Shown here one piece after another: positions 14,880 through 51,566 of a stretch of DNA of 64,000 nt. This DNA is from Escherichia coli (GTDB lineage Bacteria; Pseudomonadota; Gammaproteobacteria; Enterobacterales; Enterobacteriaceae). The stretch's first letter is position 1, and each line of letters begins with the position of its first letter. The position numbers and the translations under genes were made by a program. The notes under the pieces are model-generated. The model searched no databases, had not been told where the DNA came from, and saw nothing but the letters and a program-made list of their open reading frames with translations. The stretch lies in the NCBI RefSeq assembly GCF_024700885.2, contig NZ_CP117016.1, one strand, 5' to 3'.

Positions 14880-14925
14880 AAAACGATCGATAAAACAGGT
14901 ATCGATCGTTACCATCGATCGTTTA
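14880..14925 (+). promoter_or_regulatory. agn43 (flu) phase-variation switch: three closely spaced GATC Dam sites in the OxyR operator
   Basis: GATC at 14885-14888, 14904-14907 and 14917-14920, ~210 bp upstream of the Ag43 start, matching the known Dam/OxyR switch architecture. Confidence 0.75.
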
Positions 14926-15137
14926 TAGTGGTTAATGGTCTGCGAAAAGGCAGCTGAATCTCTTCATCATGCAGAACGGAATTGCACACAACGGACTGAT
15001 ACTTCTCTGGCGGATGAGAGAGGGGAAGCATTTATGTCCGGGAAAAACCACTTTATCTGACCATGCTGTTTTGTACCTGCCGGTATCCACATTTGTGGGT
15101 ACCGGCTTTTTTATTCACCCTCTGTAAGGAAAAGCTG

Positions 15138-18098: not shown

Positions 18099-20621
18099 GT
18101 GACTATGTTACAGATAGTCGGCGCGCTGATTCTGCTGATCGCAGGATTTGCCATTCTTCGCCTTTTGTTCAGAGCATTAACCAGCACAGCGTCTGCGCTG
18201 GCAGGGTTCGTATTGCTGTGTCTGTTCGGCCCGGCTTTACTGGCTGGCTATATCACTGAACGCATAACCCGGTTATTCCATATTCGCTGGCTGGCAGGCG
18301 TATTTCTGACGATTGCCGGAATGATTATCAGCTTCATGTGGGGACTTGATGGTAAACATATCGCACTGGAGGCTCATACTTTTGACTCTGTAAAATTTAT
18401 TCTGACCACCGCTCTCGCCGCTGGTCTGCTGGCTCTTCCCGTGCAGATAAGAACCATTCAGCAGAACGGGCTCACACCTGAAGATATCAGCAAGGAAATT
18501 AACGGGTATTACTGCTGTTTTTATACTGCTTTTTTCCTTATGGCGTGTTCTGCATACGCACCATTGATCGCATTGCAGTTCGATATTTCACCCTCACTGA
18601 TGTGGTGGGGCGGGTTGTTGTACTGGCTGGCTGCATTAGTGGCGCTGCTATGGGCGGCCAGCCAGATCCAGGCGCTGAAAAGACTGACCAGTGCCATCCG
18701 CCAGACACTGGAAGAACAACCGGTGCTCAACAGTAAATCGTGGCTGAGCAGTTTGCAAAACGATTACAGCCTTCCTGAAACGCTGACGGAGCGCATCTGG
18801 CTGACACTCATTTCACAACGGATTTCCCGGGGAGAACTGAGGGAATTTGAACTGGCAGACGGAAACTGGCTACTGGACAATGCCTGGTATGAAAGAAACA
18901 TGGCGGGTTTCAACGAAAAGCTGAGAGAGAGCCTGTCATTTACCCCTGATGAACTGAAAACCCTCTTCCGGAACCGCCTGAATTTATCACCGGAAGCGAA
19001 TGACGATTTTCTCGATCGTTGCCTGGACGGCGGTGACTGGTACCCCTTTTCAGAAGGCCGCCGTTTTGTATCATTCCACCACGTGGATGAGCTTCGTATC
19101 TGTGCCTCCTGCGGGCTGACAGAAGTACATCATGCCCCGGAAAATCATAAGCCGGATCCGGAATGGTACTGCTCCTCTCTTTGTCGCGAAACAGAAACAC
19201 TGTGTCAGGACATTTATGAACGTTCTTACACCGGTTTTATTTCCGATGCAACGGCGAATGGTCTGATTCTCATGAAACTGCCGGAAACCTGGAGTACAAA
19301 TGAGAAAATGTTTGCTTCCGGAGGGCAGGGACATGGGTTTGCCGCTGAACGGGGAAACCATATTGTCGACAGAGTCCGTCTGAAAAACGCACGGATCCTC
19401 GGTGATAATAATGCCAGAAATGGAGCAGACAGACTGGTCAGCGGAACAGAAATCCAGACGAAATATTGTTCAACTGCAGCCCGTAGCGTCGGTGCGGCAT
19501 TCGACGGACAAAACGGACAGTATCGTTACATGGGAAATCATGGTCCCATGCAACTGGAAGTCCCCCGTGATCAGTATGCCGGCGCTGTGGAAACCATGAA
19601 GAATAAGATCCGCGAAGGTAAAGTACCCGGTGTAACCGATCCCGCAGAAGCGTCCCGGCTGATTCGTCGGGGACATCTGACTTATACCCAGGCCCGTAAT
19701 ATCACCCGGTTCGGGACCATCGAATCGGTCACTTATGATATTGCCGAGGGGTCGGTTGTCAGTCTGGCGGCCGGAGGGATCAGTTTTGCCCTGACGGCAT
19801 CGGTCTTCTGGCTCAGCACCGGCGATCGCGATGCTGCCCTGCAGACAGCTGCTGTCCAGGCAGGAAAAACCTTCACCCGCACACTGGCTGTCTACGTCAC
19901 AACCCAGCAACTTCACCGGCTCAGTGTTGTTCAGGGTATGCTGAAGCATATTGATTTTTCGACGGCCAGCCCGACTGTCCGGCAGGCGCTTCAGAAGGGG
20001 ACCGGTGCAGGAAATATCAGTGCCCTGAACAAAGTGATGAAGGGTACGCTGGTGACATCTCTGGCACTGGTAGCTGTCACAACCGGCCCTGACATGATCA
20101 AAATGTTGCGGGGACGGATCTCCGGTGCGCAGTTCATCAGGAATCTTGCCGTGGCATCTTCCGGTGTGGCAGGTGGTGCTGTCGGGTCAGTGGCGGGCGG
20201 GATATTGTTCAGTCCACTGGGACCATTTGGTGCACTGACAGGGCGTGTGGTTGGCGGTGTTCTGGGGGGAATGATTGCCTCCGCTGTATCAGGAAAAATT
20301 GCCGGAGCGCTGGTTGAAGAAGATCGCGTCAAAATTCTGGCAATGATTCAGGAGCAGGTGACATGGCTTGCCGGCAGTTTCCTGCTGACCGGACATGAGA
20401 TTGAAAATCTGAACGAGAATCTGGCCCGTGTTATCGATCAGAATGCTCTGGAGATCATTTTCGCCGCCGGTATACAACAACGGGCCGCGACCAATATGTT
20501 AATCAAACCACTGGTGGTCAGTATCATCAGGCAACGCCCCGTCATGGAATATGATGCATCCCATCTCGGCAATATGGTTAACCGACTGGAAGAAGCATTA
20601 CCCCCGGAGTTACCGGCATAA
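18099..20621 (+). CDS. yeeR: YeeR-like inner-membrane protein, full length
   Basis: 840 aa; N-terminal hydrophobic helices, internal Cys cluster (CASCGL...CSSLC), C-terminal Gly-rich hydrophobic region; positioned after flu as in CP4-44. Confidence 0.65.
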   Translation: MTMLQIVGALILLIAGFAILRLLFRALTSTASALAGFVLLCLFGPALLAGYITERITRLFHIRWLAGVFLTIAGMIISFMWGLDGKHIALEAHTFDSVKFILTTALAAGLLALPVQIRTIQQNGLTPEDISKEINGYYCCFYTAFFLMACSAYAPLIALQFDISPSLMWWGGLLYWLAALVALLWAASQIQALKRLTSAIRQTLEEQPVLNSKSWLSSLQNDYSLPETLTERIWLTLISQRISRGELREFELADGNWLLDNAWYERNMAGFNEKLRESLSFTPDELKTLFRNRLNLSPEANDDFLDRCLDGGDWYPFSEGRRFVSFHHVDELRICASCGLTEVHHAPENHKPDPEWYCSSLCRETETLCQDIYERSYTGFISDATANGLILMKLPETWSTNEKMFASGGQGHGFAAERGNHIVDRVRLKNARILGDNNARNGADRLVSGTEIQTKYCSTAARSVGAAFDGQNGQYRYMGNHGPMQLEVPRDQYAGAVETMKNKIREGKVPGVTDPAEASRLIRRGHLTYTQARNITRFGTIESVTYDIAEGSVVSLAAGGISFALTASVFWLSTGDRDAALQTAAVQAGKTFTRTLAVYVTTQQLHRLSVVQGMLKHIDFSTASPTVRQALQKGTGAGNISALNKVMKGTLVTSLALVAVTTGPDMIKMLRGRISGAQFIRNLAVASSGVAGGAVGSVAGGILFSPLGPFGALTGRVVGGVLGGMIASAVSGKIAGALVEEDRVKILAMIQEQVTWLAGSFLLTGHEIENLNENLARVIDQNALEIIFAAGIQQRAATNMLIKPLVVSIIRQRPVMEYDASHLGNMVNRLEEALPPELPA

Positions 20622-20696
20622 CGGCTATTCTGCGCCTTTTACGCTTTATCACCTGATTTGTCAGTGTCATCGTCATGACTCAGAGAGGTAAATACC

Positions 20697-21152
20697 ATGA
20701 TTCACCTGTTCAAAACCTGCATGATTACCGCCTTCATTCTGGGGTTAACGTGGTCTGCCCCACTCCGGGCACAGGATCAACGTTACATCAGTATACGCAA
20801 TACAGATACGATATGGCTCCCGGGAAATATTTGTGCCTACCAGTTCCGGCTGGATAATGGCGGAAACGATGAAGGATTTGGCCCCCTCACCATCACTCTG
20901 CAACTCAAAGACAAATATGGTCAGACGCTGGTGACCAGAAAAATGGAAACGGAAGCCTTTGGTGACAGTAATGCCACGCGAACCACAGACGCATTTATGG
21001 AAACGGAGTGCGTGGAAAATGTCGCCACAACCGAAATCATTAAAGCAACTGAAGAAAGTAACGGCCATCGTGTCAGTCTGCCGTTATCGGTTTTTGATCC
21101 CCAGGACTACCATCCACTGCTGATTACCGTTTCCGGAAAAAATGTTAACTGA
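20697..21152 (+). CDS. Hypothetical secreted protein (signal peptide)
   Basis: 151 aa with N-terminal hydrophobic signal-like segment ...ITAFILGLTWSAPLRAQ; no family recognised. Confidence 0.55.
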   Translation: MIHLFKTCMITAFILGLTWSAPLRAQDQRYISIRNTDTIWLPGNICAYQFRLDNGGNDEGFGPLTITLQLKDKYGQTLVTRKMETEAFGDSNATRTTDAFMETECVENVATTEIIKATEESNGHRVSLPLSVFDPQDYHPLLITVSGKNVN

Positions 21153-21483
21153 TCCCTGAAGTCAGTTTCATGCTTCAGCCTCTGCCACAACGTATGGCAG
21201 AGGCTATTTATCAGGAGAAACCAGATATGCCGGGTTACACACAGAGTATGTCCTGGCTGAAGGATCTTTCTCATACGGGCAGACGGTGGCTGTCACAACA
21301 GCTTACCTTAATGTGCTTATTGAAGATGACCAGGTGCGCACTTCCGGCTGGTTATCCGCAACGCGGAAGGTCAGCGACGCTGGCGCTGCCGGAATACTGA
21401 ACCCTGTGCCGGAAAGCAGCTTAATGCGTGGCTCGCCAGTGAAGGGCTTCTCAGACAATAAACGTCATTGATTTCGTCCATCA

Positions 21484-21515
21484 GGCCGCGTCTTCTCCGG
21501 GAGACGCGGCTTTTT
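21484..21515 (+). terminator. Rho-independent terminator-like hairpin
   Basis: GCCGCGTCT ... AGACGCGGC stem followed by TTTTTT (21510-21515). Confidence 0.45.
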
Positions 21516-21561
21516 TCATTTATTACACCAGTAAATCTTAACCACCGATAAGGAGCAAAGT

Positions 21562-22383
21562 ATGCGATTAGCCAGTCGTTTTGGTTATGCTGCAAACCAG
21601 ATACGCCGTGACCGTCCACTGACACATGAAGAGCTGATGCACCATGTGCCGGGGATTTTCGGGGAAGATAAACACACGTCCCGAAGCCAGAACTATACGT
21701 ACATCCCCACCATCACCGTGCTGGAAAGTCTGCAGCGGGAAGGCTTCCAGCCATTCTTCGCCTGCCAGACCCGTGTGCGCGACCCGGGCCGTCGGGGATA
21801 CACAAAACACATGCTGCGTCTGCGGCGGGCCGGAGAGATAAACGGAGAACATGTCCCTGAAATTATTCTGCTCAACTCTCATGACGGTACCTCCAGCTAC
21901 CAGATGCTGCCGGGTTACTTCAGGTTCGTCTGCCAGAACGGGTGCGTCTGTGGTCAGTCTCTGGGGGAAGTGCGTGTTCCGCACCGGGGAAATGTAGTGG
22001 AGAAAGTTATCGAAGGGGCTTACGAGGTGGTGGGGGTTTTTGACCGGATAGAGGAGAAGCGTGATGCCATGCAGTCGCTGGTCCTGCCGCCACCGGCACG
22101 CCAGGCGCTGGCACAGGCGGCACTGACTTACCGTTATGGTGACGAACATCAGCCCGTCACCACCGCCGACATTCTGACGCCACGACGCCGGGAGGATTAC
22201 GGAAAGGACCTGTGGAGTGCTTATCAGACCATCCAGGAGAATATGCTGAAAGGGGGGATTTCCGGTCGCAGTGCCAGAGGAAAACGTATCCACACCCGTG
22301 CCATTCACAGCATCGACACCGACATTAAGCTCAACCGCGCATTGTGGGTGATGGCTGAAACGCTGCTGGAGAGTATGCGCTGA
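21562..22383 (+). CDS. DUF932-family protein (YfjQ/YafZ-like)
   Basis: 273 aa; position and sequence character match the DUF932 genes of CP4-type islands. Confidence 0.7.
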   Translation: MRLASRFGYAANQIRRDRPLTHEELMHHVPGIFGEDKHTSRSQNYTYIPTITVLESLQREGFQPFFACQTRVRDPGRRGYTKHMLRLRRAGEINGEHVPEIILLNSHDGTSSYQMLPGYFRFVCQNGCVCGQSLGEVRVPHRGNVVEKVIEGAYEVVGVFDRIEEKRDAMQSLVLPPPARQALAQAALTYRYGDEHQPVTTADILTPRRREDYGKDLWSAYQTIQENMLKGGISGRSARGKRIHTRAIHSIDTDIKLNRALWVMAETLLESMR

Positions 22384-22474
22384 TGCCGTTTCCCTGAAAG
22401 CGCAGTTCTGACTCACGTCTGTCCCTTCCCCCGGGATTTCTTCCATTCATTTACTTTTTATAAGGAATAATCTC

Positions 22475-22960
22475 ATGACAACCGTCTTGCATAATTCCAC
22501 CACTCCTTCTGTTTCCGTAACCGCTGCATCAGGGAATGACCAGCCTCAGCTGGTTGCCACCATAGTCCCTGATGAACAGCGCATCAGCTTCTGGCCGCAG
22601 CACTTTGGCCTCATTCCACAGTGGGTGGCCCTGGAGCCCCGTGTCTTCGGCTGGATGGACCGTCTGTGTGAAGACTACTGCGGTGGTATCTGGAATCTGT
22701 ACACCCTGAACAACGGCGGGGCATTTATGGCACCCGAACCGGATGACGATGATGACGAAACATGGGTACTGTTCAATGCCATGAACGGTAACCGCGCTGA
22801 AATGAGCCCGGAAGCCGCCGGCATTGCTGCCTGTCTGATGACGTACAGCCATCATGCCTGTCGTACGGAGTGTTATGCCATGACGGTCCATTATTACCGG
22901 TTGCGGGATTACGCCCTGCAGCATCCGGAATGCAGCGCCATTATGCGCATCATCGACTGA
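22475..22960 (+). CDS. Anti-restriction protein (ArdB/KlcA family, YfjX/YafX-like)
   Basis: 161 aa; acidic DDDDDE stretch and ...FGWMDRLCEDYCGGIWNLYTLNNGGAFMAP... typical of this family; position upstream of the radC-like gene. Confidence 0.75.
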   Translation: MTTVLHNSTTPSVSVTAASGNDQPQLVATIVPDEQRISFWPQHFGLIPQWVALEPRVFGWMDRLCEDYCGGIWNLYTLNNGGAFMAPEPDDDDDETWVLFNAMNGNRAEMSPEAAGIAACLMTYSHHACRTECYAMTVHYYRLRDYALQHPECSAIMRIID

Positions 22961-23452
22961 ATGGAGAGAAGCACAATGCAACAGCTTTCCTTTCTGCCCG
23001 GAGAGATGACGCCCGGCGAGCGCAGTCTCATTCTGCGGGCCCTGAAAACTCTGGACCGCCATCTTCATGAACCCGGCGTGGCCTTCACCTCCACCCGTGC
23101 GGCACGGGAATGGCTGATTCTGAACATGGCGGGACTGGAGCGTGAAGAATTCCGGGTGCTGTATCTGAATAACCAGAATCAACTGATTGCCGGTGAAACC
23201 CTCTTCACCGGCACCATCAACCGCACGGAAGTCCATCCCCGGGAAGTGATTAAACGCGCCCTGTACCACAATGCCGCTGCCGTGGTGCTGGCGCACAATC
23301 ACCCGTCCGGTGAAGTCACACCCAGCAAGGCAGACCGCCTTATCACGGAACGTCTGGTACAGGCACTGGGCCTGGTGGATATCCGGGTGCCGGACCATCT
23401 GATAGTCGGTGGCAACCAGGTTTTCTCCTTTGCCGAACATGGTCTGCTTTAA
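22961..23452 (+). CDS. yeeS: RadC-like JAB-domain protein (YeeS/YfjY/YkfG family)
   Basis: JAMM motif HNHPSGEVTPSKAD; alternative start at 22976 (MQQLSFLPGE). Confidence 0.85.
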   Translation: MERSTMQQLSFLPGEMTPGERSLILRALKTLDRHLHEPGVAFTSTRAAREWLILNMAGLEREEFRVLYLNNQNQLIAGETLFTGTINRTEVHPREVIKRALYHNAAAVVLAHNHPSGEVTPSKADRLITERLVQALGLVDIRVPDHLIVGGNQVFSFAEHGLL

Positions 23453-23514
23453 CCCGTCACAACCACATCACACCTGTTTTCACTTTTATCTTCTGTCTTC
23501 AGAGGTATCACATC

Positions 23515-26467: not shown

Positions 26468-26555
26468 TGGCGGTGAGGGGGGGATTCGAACCCCCGATAC
26501 GTTGCCGTATACACACTTTCCAGGCGTGCTCCTTCAGCCACTCGGACACCTCACC
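26468..26555 (-). tRNA. serX: tRNA-Ser (anticodon GGA), serX-like
   Basis: Reverse complement reads GGTGAGGTGTCCGAGTGGCTGAAGGAGCACGCCTGGAAAGTGTG...GGGGGTTCGAATCCCCCCCTCACCGCCA: long variable arm, T-loop GGTTCGAATCC, CCA end, GGA anticodon. Confidence 0.95.
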
Positions 26556-32099: not shown

Positions 32100-32853
32100 G
32101 ATGAAACCCCGCTTTTTTTATTGATCGCACACCTGACAGCTGCCTCTAAAATAGAAGCACCAGAAGTACTGACAGATGTTGCACTGCTGTGTGTAGTAAT
32201 AAATCAGCCCTAAATGGGTAAAATATAAAACTAATGGATTACATCTGATTTCAATCTAGCCATTACAAATCTTAAATCAAGTGTTAAACATGTAACTAAA
32301 TGTAACTCGTTATATTAAAATGTTAATCTTAAGGTTTTATTAAGTTTAGAAATGATAGAAAAGTTGTACATTTGGTTTTTATTGCACAATTTTAAAAAAT
32401 CATACAAATGGTGCTAACTTACTAATAATGCATATAAAAAATATTTCGGTGTAGTCCTTTCGTCATGTAAAACGTTCTTGTTTTTTCTTCACACCTCCGT
32501 GGACAATTTTTTACTGCAAAAAGACGAGGTTTGTCACGGCTTGTGCGCAAGACATATCGCAGCAATCAGCGACGGGCAAGAAGAATGGCTGTCTGGTGAT
32601 TTTTGATTGCGGAAAACGGAGATTTAAAAGAAAACAAAATATTTTTTTGCGTAGATAACAGCGTATTTACGTGGGTTTTAATACTTTGGTATGAACAAAA
32701 AAAGAAAAATACAACGCGCGGGTGAGTTATTAAAAATATTTCCGCAGACATACTTTCCATCGTAACGCAGCGTTAACAAAATACAGGTTGCGTTAACAAC
32801 CAAGTTGAAATGATTTAATTTCTTAAATGTACGACCAGGTCCAGGGTGACAAC
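32100..32853. promoter_or_regulatory. csgD-csgB divergent intergenic regulatory region (754 bp, AT-rich)
   Basis: 754-bp non-coding AT-rich segment between divergent csgD and csgB starts, matching the known curli control region; individual binding sites not mapped here. Confidence 0.7.
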
Positions 32854-42322: not shown

Positions 42323-42416
42323 GCCTGATGAGCTACGCTTATCAGGCCTACATCGCTCCTGCAATATGTTGATTTTGCAAGATTTTGTAGGTCGGATAAG
42401 GCGTTCACGCCACATC
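42323..42416. repeat. REP/BIME element (two inverted REP copies)
   Basis: GCCTGATGAGCTACGCTTATCAGGCCTACA and GTAGGTCGGATAAGGCGTTCACGCCACATC, classic REP consensus in opposite orientations. Confidence 0.8.
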
Positions 42417-51515: not shown

Positions 51516-51566
51516 TAATCTCTATGCTCCGGCTGAAGGGATGTTTTTGCCGGACACAAAGGATAA

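Follow-up and report, generated by a model that had tools for sequence, protein, structure and literature searches.

Positions 21,153 to 21,561 of a 64,000-nucleotide stretch of Escherichia coli DNA (contig NZ_CP117016.1; hereafter the window) lie between a gene for an IrmA-family secreted protein and a DUF932 gene. This intergenic segment is very probably a decayed DUF905/UPF0401 (YkfF-like) gene, which carries two frameshifts and is followed by that gene's conserved terminator. Our high confidence applies to the explanation as a whole, namely the pseudogene, the terminator, the read-through that would enter the segment and the insulation of the genes behind it. An earlier note, made from the letters alone, had described only short open reading frames (ORFs) of 61–76 amino acids (aa) between the two genes and had considered a small protein gene or a non-coding RNA. 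Both ORFs are present. The small protein gene was correct as to origin, in a 77-codon DUF905/YkfF-family gene, but not as to the present state, which is a pseudogene whose ORFs are out-of-register fragments. The features needed for this account are listed below; nt, nucleotides.

21213..21217, + strand: Shine-Dalgarno sequence AGGAG of the DUF905 gene, 9 nt 5' of the ATG at 21227 (sequence reading)
21227-21461, + strand: DUF905/UPF0401 (YkfF-like) pseudogene, 235 nt, whose frame traverses all three + frames
21237-21242, + strand: lesion 1, +2 bp, (AC)3, i.e. ACACAC versus ACAC in the intact IrmA-linked copy L003 (alignment A1)
21333-21334, + strand: lesion 2, −1 bp, GG versus GGG/GGN in intact homologues, at the Gly36 codon (alignment A1, tblastn)
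21170-21400, + strand: 76-aa ORF, with only 4 native DUF905 residues past ATG 21227, then out of frame
21286-21471, + strand: 61-aa ORF, residues 2-16 of which are the native DUF905 middle, the rest out of frame
21483-21495 / 21500-21512, + strand: 13-bp stem of a predicted intrinsic terminator, with a UCCG loop and a T-run at 21511-21516 (terminator scan, fold)

The DUF905 pseudogene and its two lesions

Three-frame translation showed the family sequence split, with MPGY in the frame of ATG 21227, the next part in the second frame and the remainder in the third. A tblastn search gave two high-scoring segment pairs in different frames, joining at 21333. With both indels repaired, the conceptual translation was 77 aa long and matched PF06006 at 73.4 bits (E 1.5e-20), as compared with a gathering score of 22.3 bits, and the YkfF fold (helix, three strands, helix) was recognized. 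Descent from the DUF905/PF06006 family is established, but not the encoding of a family protein. The 61-aa ORF as it stands gave a weak PF06006 match (12.5 bits) over residues 2-16 only. Pfam searches matched no family to the 76-aa ORF, nor to the antisense ORFs at 21371-21625 (84 aa) and 21303-21458 (51 aa).

In other islands, the unbroken homologues span 234 nt and encode 77 aa. In the window, by comparison, there is no uninterrupted ORF of ~75-80 codons from the conserved ribosome-binding site (RBS) and ATG to the ...LRQ* end; the frame runs 0, +2, +1. Because the frame is broken in the 235-nt span, and because RefSeq labels the 100%-identical sequence of strain M217 (window 21227-21461) 'DUF905 family protein, frameshifted', we filed the segment as a pseudogene and not as a member gene. 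The pseudogene is thus already annotated in RefSeq and is ordinary, not new. Lesion 1 lies near codon 5 and looks like dinucleotide slippage. The RBS-to-ATG block is kept among differing upstream contexts in alignment A1, and the preserved RBS and ATG could give only a 58-aa peptide, predicted to be nonsense beyond its first 4 residues. The pseudogene is presumably without residual function.

An exact 61-mer of the +2 allele occurs in 637 E. coli genome records, and that of the −1 allele in 309. Since the −1 count is smaller and an allele with +2 alone exists (L002, alignment A1), the lineage appears to have gained +2 and later −1. This suggests that the lesions are nested and fixed in one lineage, with counts that would fit the 309 records lying among the 637. 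The +2 insertion is shared by L002 and L089; L002 has in addition TGA in place of the TGG of intact alleles, and the Prokaryotic Genome Annotation Pipeline (PGAP) calls a 43-aa ORF in L002 and a 29-aa ORF in L089. In strain G749 (L088 2436-2655), only the last ~55 nt of DUF905 and an intact hairpin are left 5' of DUF932, with the breakpoint marked by an unrelated 54-nt insert. The intact-looking IrmA-linked copy L003 (1628-1861) differs from L004 (1522-1755) by R16Y, E32Q, L41R, W55R and F57S, all at nearly invariant positions, and its Pfam score is 64 bits versus 106-110 for the Ag43-linked copies. These substitutions and the low score suggest that relaxed selection across the whole IrmA-linked clade preceded the frameshifts. 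Close pairs of other intact DUF905 genes differed mostly at third codon positions (7/4/16, 4/1/8, 3/0/11 and 7/2/9 differences at codon positions 1/2/3). DUF905 is a genuine protein family, now in decay in this island lineage.

The terminator hairpin and its conservation

The GC-rich hairpin with a T-run described in the earlier note was recovered. It has 13 pairs (8 of them G-C) at 21483-21512 around a 4-nt loop, followed by TTTTTTCATTTA. Its RNA folds at −24.5 kcal/mol, versus −10.7 ± 2.6 kcal/mol for dinucleotide shuffles (z = −5.27; 0 of 200 shuffles as good). The minus strand folds more weakly, at −17.3 kcal/mol, and is without a T-run. The stem begins 22 nt 3' of the pseudogene TAA (21459-21461), and the terminator ends 46 nt 5' of the DUF932 start codon. 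A terminator scan of the 4-kb region returned three sites versus 3.8 in shuffles, i.e. no excess, with 21483-21512 the strongest by far. We therefore take the hairpin to be real because of the fold z-score and the covariation in relatives, not because of the scan count. A GC-rich stem-loop with a U-tract, located 3' of the stop codon on the same strand and conserved in structure more than in sequence, is read as an intrinsic (Rho-independent) terminator, predicted to act in vivo. The strong terminator proposed earlier agrees with this structure and with the covariation. In the class A relatives, the terminator is likewise placed after the stop codon.

To look for structural selection, one genome per species was scanned for DUF905 relatives; most of the 80 loci found bear the labels of Enterobacterales genera. 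A GC-rich hairpin lies within ~20-60 nt 3' of nearly every DUF905 gene in these 80 loci, in three sequence classes. One class has DUF932 90-120 nt further 3'; its stem sequences vary while the pairing is kept (GGCCGCGTCTTC.., GGCCATGCTCC.., GGCCACACCTCC.., AGACCATGCGCCC..). A covariation alignment of 19 distinct sequences (A3) had standard pairs in 96.3% of its cells and changes on both sides at 8 of the 13 pairs (34 cells), and its covariation score was reached by none of 500 shuffles. When the 3' partner was slid by 1-3 columns, pairing fell to 35-58%. The alignment contained 26 G.U cells; read on the complementary strand, these would be A.C mismatches. The G.U pairs and the T-run therefore mark the + strand RNA as the selected form, and comparative sequence evidence indicates that the hairpin is under structural selection as + strand RNA with a U-tract, across genera. 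Some DUF905 loci came from assemblies labelled Chryseobacterium sp. 18061, Clostridiales and Oscillospiraceae metagenome-assembled genomes, Acinetobacter idrijaensis and Streptomyces morookaense (L033, L061, L039, L064, L065, L068, L079); these labels most likely reflect contamination or mis-binning.

Within E. coli, the hairpin is almost invariant among alleles, though the adjacent coding sequences are ~80% identical (alignment A1). It stays with DUF932 where DUF905 is largely lost, as in G749, and stands at the DUF905-DUF932 junction in every locus retrieved. A 55-nt hairpin query matched 8,040 places in 4,004 E. coli genomes of the 5426 searched, fewer than the 11,946 places of the surrounding 501-nt module (megablast, 5426 complete E. 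coli genomes); among the matches listed, none had an annotated feature under it. The window holds one copy, even when 3 mismatches are allowed. The fixed context and the smaller number of places than the module indicate that the hairpin is carried along by the island backbone rather than dispersed as a repeat.

Probable transcription into the segment and rival explanations

A second hairpin precedes the pseudogene.

21177..21206, + strand: upstream hairpin GCCTCTGCCA-caacgta-TGGCAGAGGC, 11 bp, just 3' of the irmA stop codon and ~20 nt 5' of the DUF905 ATG

It folds at about −21 to −22.6 kcal/mol (z −3.98), and a C>T change in the relative L003 turns one of its pairs into G.U. Its T-poor tail, TATTTAT, drew no call from the terminator scan; the hairpin probably serves the irmA transcript as a weak terminator or attenuator. 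The Ag43-linked copies (L004 1470-1500) have a different, stronger hairpin with TTTT at the same position. DUF905 genes are thus flanked on each side by a terminator-like hairpin, and no promoter is visible. A promoter scan of 19500-23500 detected no + strand sigma-70-like site, and homology among the differing upstream contexts of DUF905 begins only ~22 nt 5' of the ATG (alignment A1). From these two observations, DUF905 appears to be expressed through transcription coming from upstream. A promoter between the terminator and DUF932, sought by eye, was rejected; the hairpin-to-RBS gap leaves ~40 nt of room, and a −35 box would overlap the covarying stem.

According to published work, agn43, yeeR and irmA are cotranscribed in uropathogenic E. 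coli (UPEC; PMC4807369), and enteroaggregative E. coli (EAEC) 042 has a promoter close to irmA (PMC9431211). Transcription that enters the segment probably comes from the agn43-yeeR-irmA operon. Transcripts begun at the flu-yeeR-irmA operon or at the irmA promoter would leak through the weaker hairpin behind irmA (21177-21206), traverse the pseudogene and end at 21512-21519. The terminator would thereby insulate or attenuate the DUF932, antirestriction, RadC/JAB, DUF987, YeeU and CbtA genes downstream.

Several points weigh against this account. No promoter-like site was found between the two hairpins, which makes the expression route of even the intact DUF905 copies puzzling. Termination at the T-run, read-through past the first hairpin and the start of the incoming transcripts are all predictions. 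The A3 sequences were self-selected, having been trimmed around hairpins predicted by RNAfold, and are biased to pairing; the slid controls and the compensatory changes argue against an artefact, although they do not remove this bias. A generic control separated only moderately: the best 45-nt hairpin 3' of DUF905 had a median of −20.1 kcal/mol, versus −13.6 kcal/mol in random windows of the same loci, and 88% versus 47% were at or below −14 kcal/mol. We therefore relied on covariation instead.

The hairpin might also be a conditional attenuator that gates the DUF932/antirestriction/RadC/toxin-antitoxin module, with read-through, for example, only after transfer to a new host. This idea arises from the compensatory evolution across genera, the retention of the hairpin after DUF905 deletion and a module without a recognizable promoter of its own; we consider it unlikely. 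In a broader version, the GC hairpins flanking DUF905 on islands and in plasmid leading regions could be a shared regulatory architecture.

Three other explanations of the segment were weighed against the pseudogene and its terminator. A small non-coding RNA, free-standing or derived from a 3' end, with the hairpin at 21483-21516 as its terminator, would fit the strong terminator, the structured 3' end and the persistence of the hairpin where the coding sequence has decayed or been mostly deleted. Non-coding transcription near such genes does occur, since the K-12 homologue ykfF in CP4-6 is reported to have no sense transcript but a ~500-nt antisense RNA, asykfF (PMC5389530). However, Rfam 15 returned nothing at the site, either for the whole window at gathering level or for 20600-22000 at permissive level, where the best matches (E 1.1-9.8) were to unrelated eukaryotic and other families. 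The segment contains no sigma-70-like + strand promoter, and upstream homology starting only ~22 nt before the ATG leaves no room for a conserved one. In relatives, the main part of the segment changes in the codon-wise manner of a protein gene, and retention of the hairpin is equally explained by a role 5' of DUF932. The non-coding RNA suggested by the earlier note is therefore very improbable. New protein products, whether the 58-aa peptide from ATG 21227, the 76-aa or 61-aa ORF, or full-length DUF905 made by programmed frameshifting, are slightly less probable still. The native RBS and ATG (21213-21229) are intact, and the frameshifted allele has been inherited stably, being present in about 309 sequenced genomes; yet the out-of-frame parts match no family, and sister alleles were independently inactivated by a stop codon, by truncation to 43-aa and 29-aa stubs and by deletion. 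Even L003 has lost nearly invariant residues and has a low score (64 vs 106-110 bits); the inactivations and these losses together fit relaxed selection. Programmed frameshifting would need two separate corrections, −2 and +1, and no known slippery heptamer is present at either site. The homologues are in frame, so frameshifting is not a family trait; the lesions are lineage-specific.

The hairpin could instead act as DNA or as a repeat: a repetitive extragenic palindromic (REP) or bacterial interspersed mosaic element (BIME) repeat, a recombination or oriT-like inverted repeat, or a leading-region single-strand promoter or initiation hairpin. Its 8040 places in 4004 genomes would suit such a role, as would the prevalence of DUF905 in conjugative-plasmid leading regions, where single-strand DNA structures matter, and the GC hairpins that also flank plasmid-type DUF905 genes. 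We regard it as the least probable of the three. Repeats of the REP, BIME, enterobacterial repetitive intergenic consensus (ERIC) or miniature inverted-repeat transposable element (MITE) kind occur in many unrelated contexts and several times per region; the window has just one copy of this hairpin, which spreads only as part of the island backbone. The larger repeat element that the earlier note had named as a refuting possibility is thus not seen in the REP sense, the hairpin being confined to a multi-copy island backbone. Its abundant G.U pairs and one-sided T-run point to the + strand RNA as the target of selection. Frpo-type elements contain −35 and −10 boxes, for which a 13-bp stem leaves too little room. 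A single-strand promoter of the Frpo/ssi type was therefore rejected, as the short stem, the G.U pairs and the T-run point to an RNA-level terminator.

Genomic context and comparison with known systems

The neighbours named in the earlier note, a secreted-protein gene and a DUF932 gene, were both borne out by Pfam.

20697-21152: irmA-family secreted protein gene (PF18673, E 1.6e-37)
21551..21564, + strand: Shine-Dalgarno sequence AAGGAG and ATG of the DUF932 gene, TAAGGAGCAAA..ATG being kept in alignment A1
21562-22383: DUF932 protein gene (PF06067, E 3.4e-52)

DUF932 is the first gene of an array that continues with antirestriction, RadC/JAB, DUF987, YeeU and CbtA genes. The window copy of DUF905 lies directly 5' of this array, as is usual for the family in CP4-like islands, and the DUF932-to-YeeU/CbtA order recurs in other islands and in one plasmid. 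When 21100-21600 was searched by megablast against 5,426 complete E. coli genomes, 4,338 contained the region, mostly in several copies; the features annotated under the matches were typically 'IrmA family protein', 'DUF905 family protein' and 'DUF932 domain-containing protein', in that order. The segment is part of a CP4-like genomic island adjoining a tRNA-Ser gene. This tRNA-Ser (anticodon GGA, 26468-26555, − strand) lies ~1 kb past the YeeU/CbtA end of the island and is probably its integration site. Strain M217 has an identical DUF905 region, yet paoD/paoC are annotated after its toxin-antitoxin genes; identical island modules may therefore occupy different chromosomal sites. Other Rfam matches at gathering level in the window are unrelated to the segment: ES056 sRNA (32155-32246, − strand, 119.7 bits), IS102 RNA (14883-15119, + strand, 72.3 bits), ES036/CssrF sRNA (42344-42386, − strand, 47.1 bits) and the PyrC leader (51516-51565, − strand, 68.7 bits).

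DUF905 is also abundant on plasmids, with at least 5,000 matching records, 85% of them conjugative. In the leading region of an F-like plasmid, the order is ssb, DUF905, parB-like gene, psiB. The gene has been named ykfF and assigned to the 'ssi3 operon' of the leading regions of extended-spectrum β-lactamase (ESBL) plasmids (bioRxiv preprint 10.1101/2022.07.06.498992), and it is often encoded close to psiB/psiA (PMC12826799, a 2026 NAR paper). This position suggests a role early in establishment, from which we infer that DUF905 would be dispensable in resident chromosomal islands. Plasmid-type DUF905 genes (L059-L085, e.g. L084 2713-2790; L086 4204-4266) carry a different GC hairpin with no T-run (GGTGCCGGACG..CGTCCGGCA or GGTGCCCTGCCGGAGC..CTCCGCAGGGCC). 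This hairpin is followed by GACA, which is able to pair with the start-codon TGTC (ATGTCAGT) of the parB-like gene that comes next; the arrangement could be a translational or processing element. Plasmid p1658/97 has an extra hairpin (CCGCCCCG..CGGGGC) between ssb and DUF905, and the gene is hairpin-flanked there too.

These results remove a candidate small gene or non-coding RNA in favour of an annotated, frameshifted DUF905 pseudogene and an ordinary terminator. The DUF905 copies of IrmA-linked islands decay repeatedly and in different ways, suggesting that the gene is dispensable once the island is resident in the chromosome. Given the abundance of DUF905 in conjugative-plasmid leading regions, such dispensability agrees with a function confined to the phase in which mobile elements become established. 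The terminator 5' of DUF932, structurally selected across genera, offers a defined handle on expression of the antirestriction/toxin-antitoxin module.

Compared with the agn43(flu)-yeeR-irmA operon of UPEC and EAEC islands (PMC4807369, PMC9431211), the window has the same order: an Ag43 region, an 840-aa YeeR-like ORF and irmA, followed by the segment. The DUF905 pseudogene and its terminator lie outside the operon as defined, and the passages of these papers covered by term look-ups contain no description of the region 3' of irmA.

The hairpin resembles enterobacterial intrinsic terminators in its GC-rich 13-bp stem, 4-nt loop, immediate run of 6 T and position 22 nt after a stop codon, and in a structure held by compensatory substitutions. 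It differs in lying inside a long co-directional array, 46 nt before the next start codon, with no recognizable promoter between; at this position it would therefore act inside the array, as an insulator or attenuator, and not mark the end of an operon. It is also far more conserved within E. coli than the neighbouring coding sequence, and its activity is predicted.

The closest likeness is to the DUF905/UPF0401 family itself (PF06006; K-12 YkfF, PDB 2HJJ; the plasmid 'ykfF'-like ORF between ssb and a parB-like gene). Once repaired, the window copy is homologous over all 77 codons and falls in the same length class. It occupies the same island neighbourhood, 5' of DUF932, antirestriction and RadC genes, as thousands of E. 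coli copies, and it has a GC-rich hairpin after its stop codon, as do nearly all members examined.
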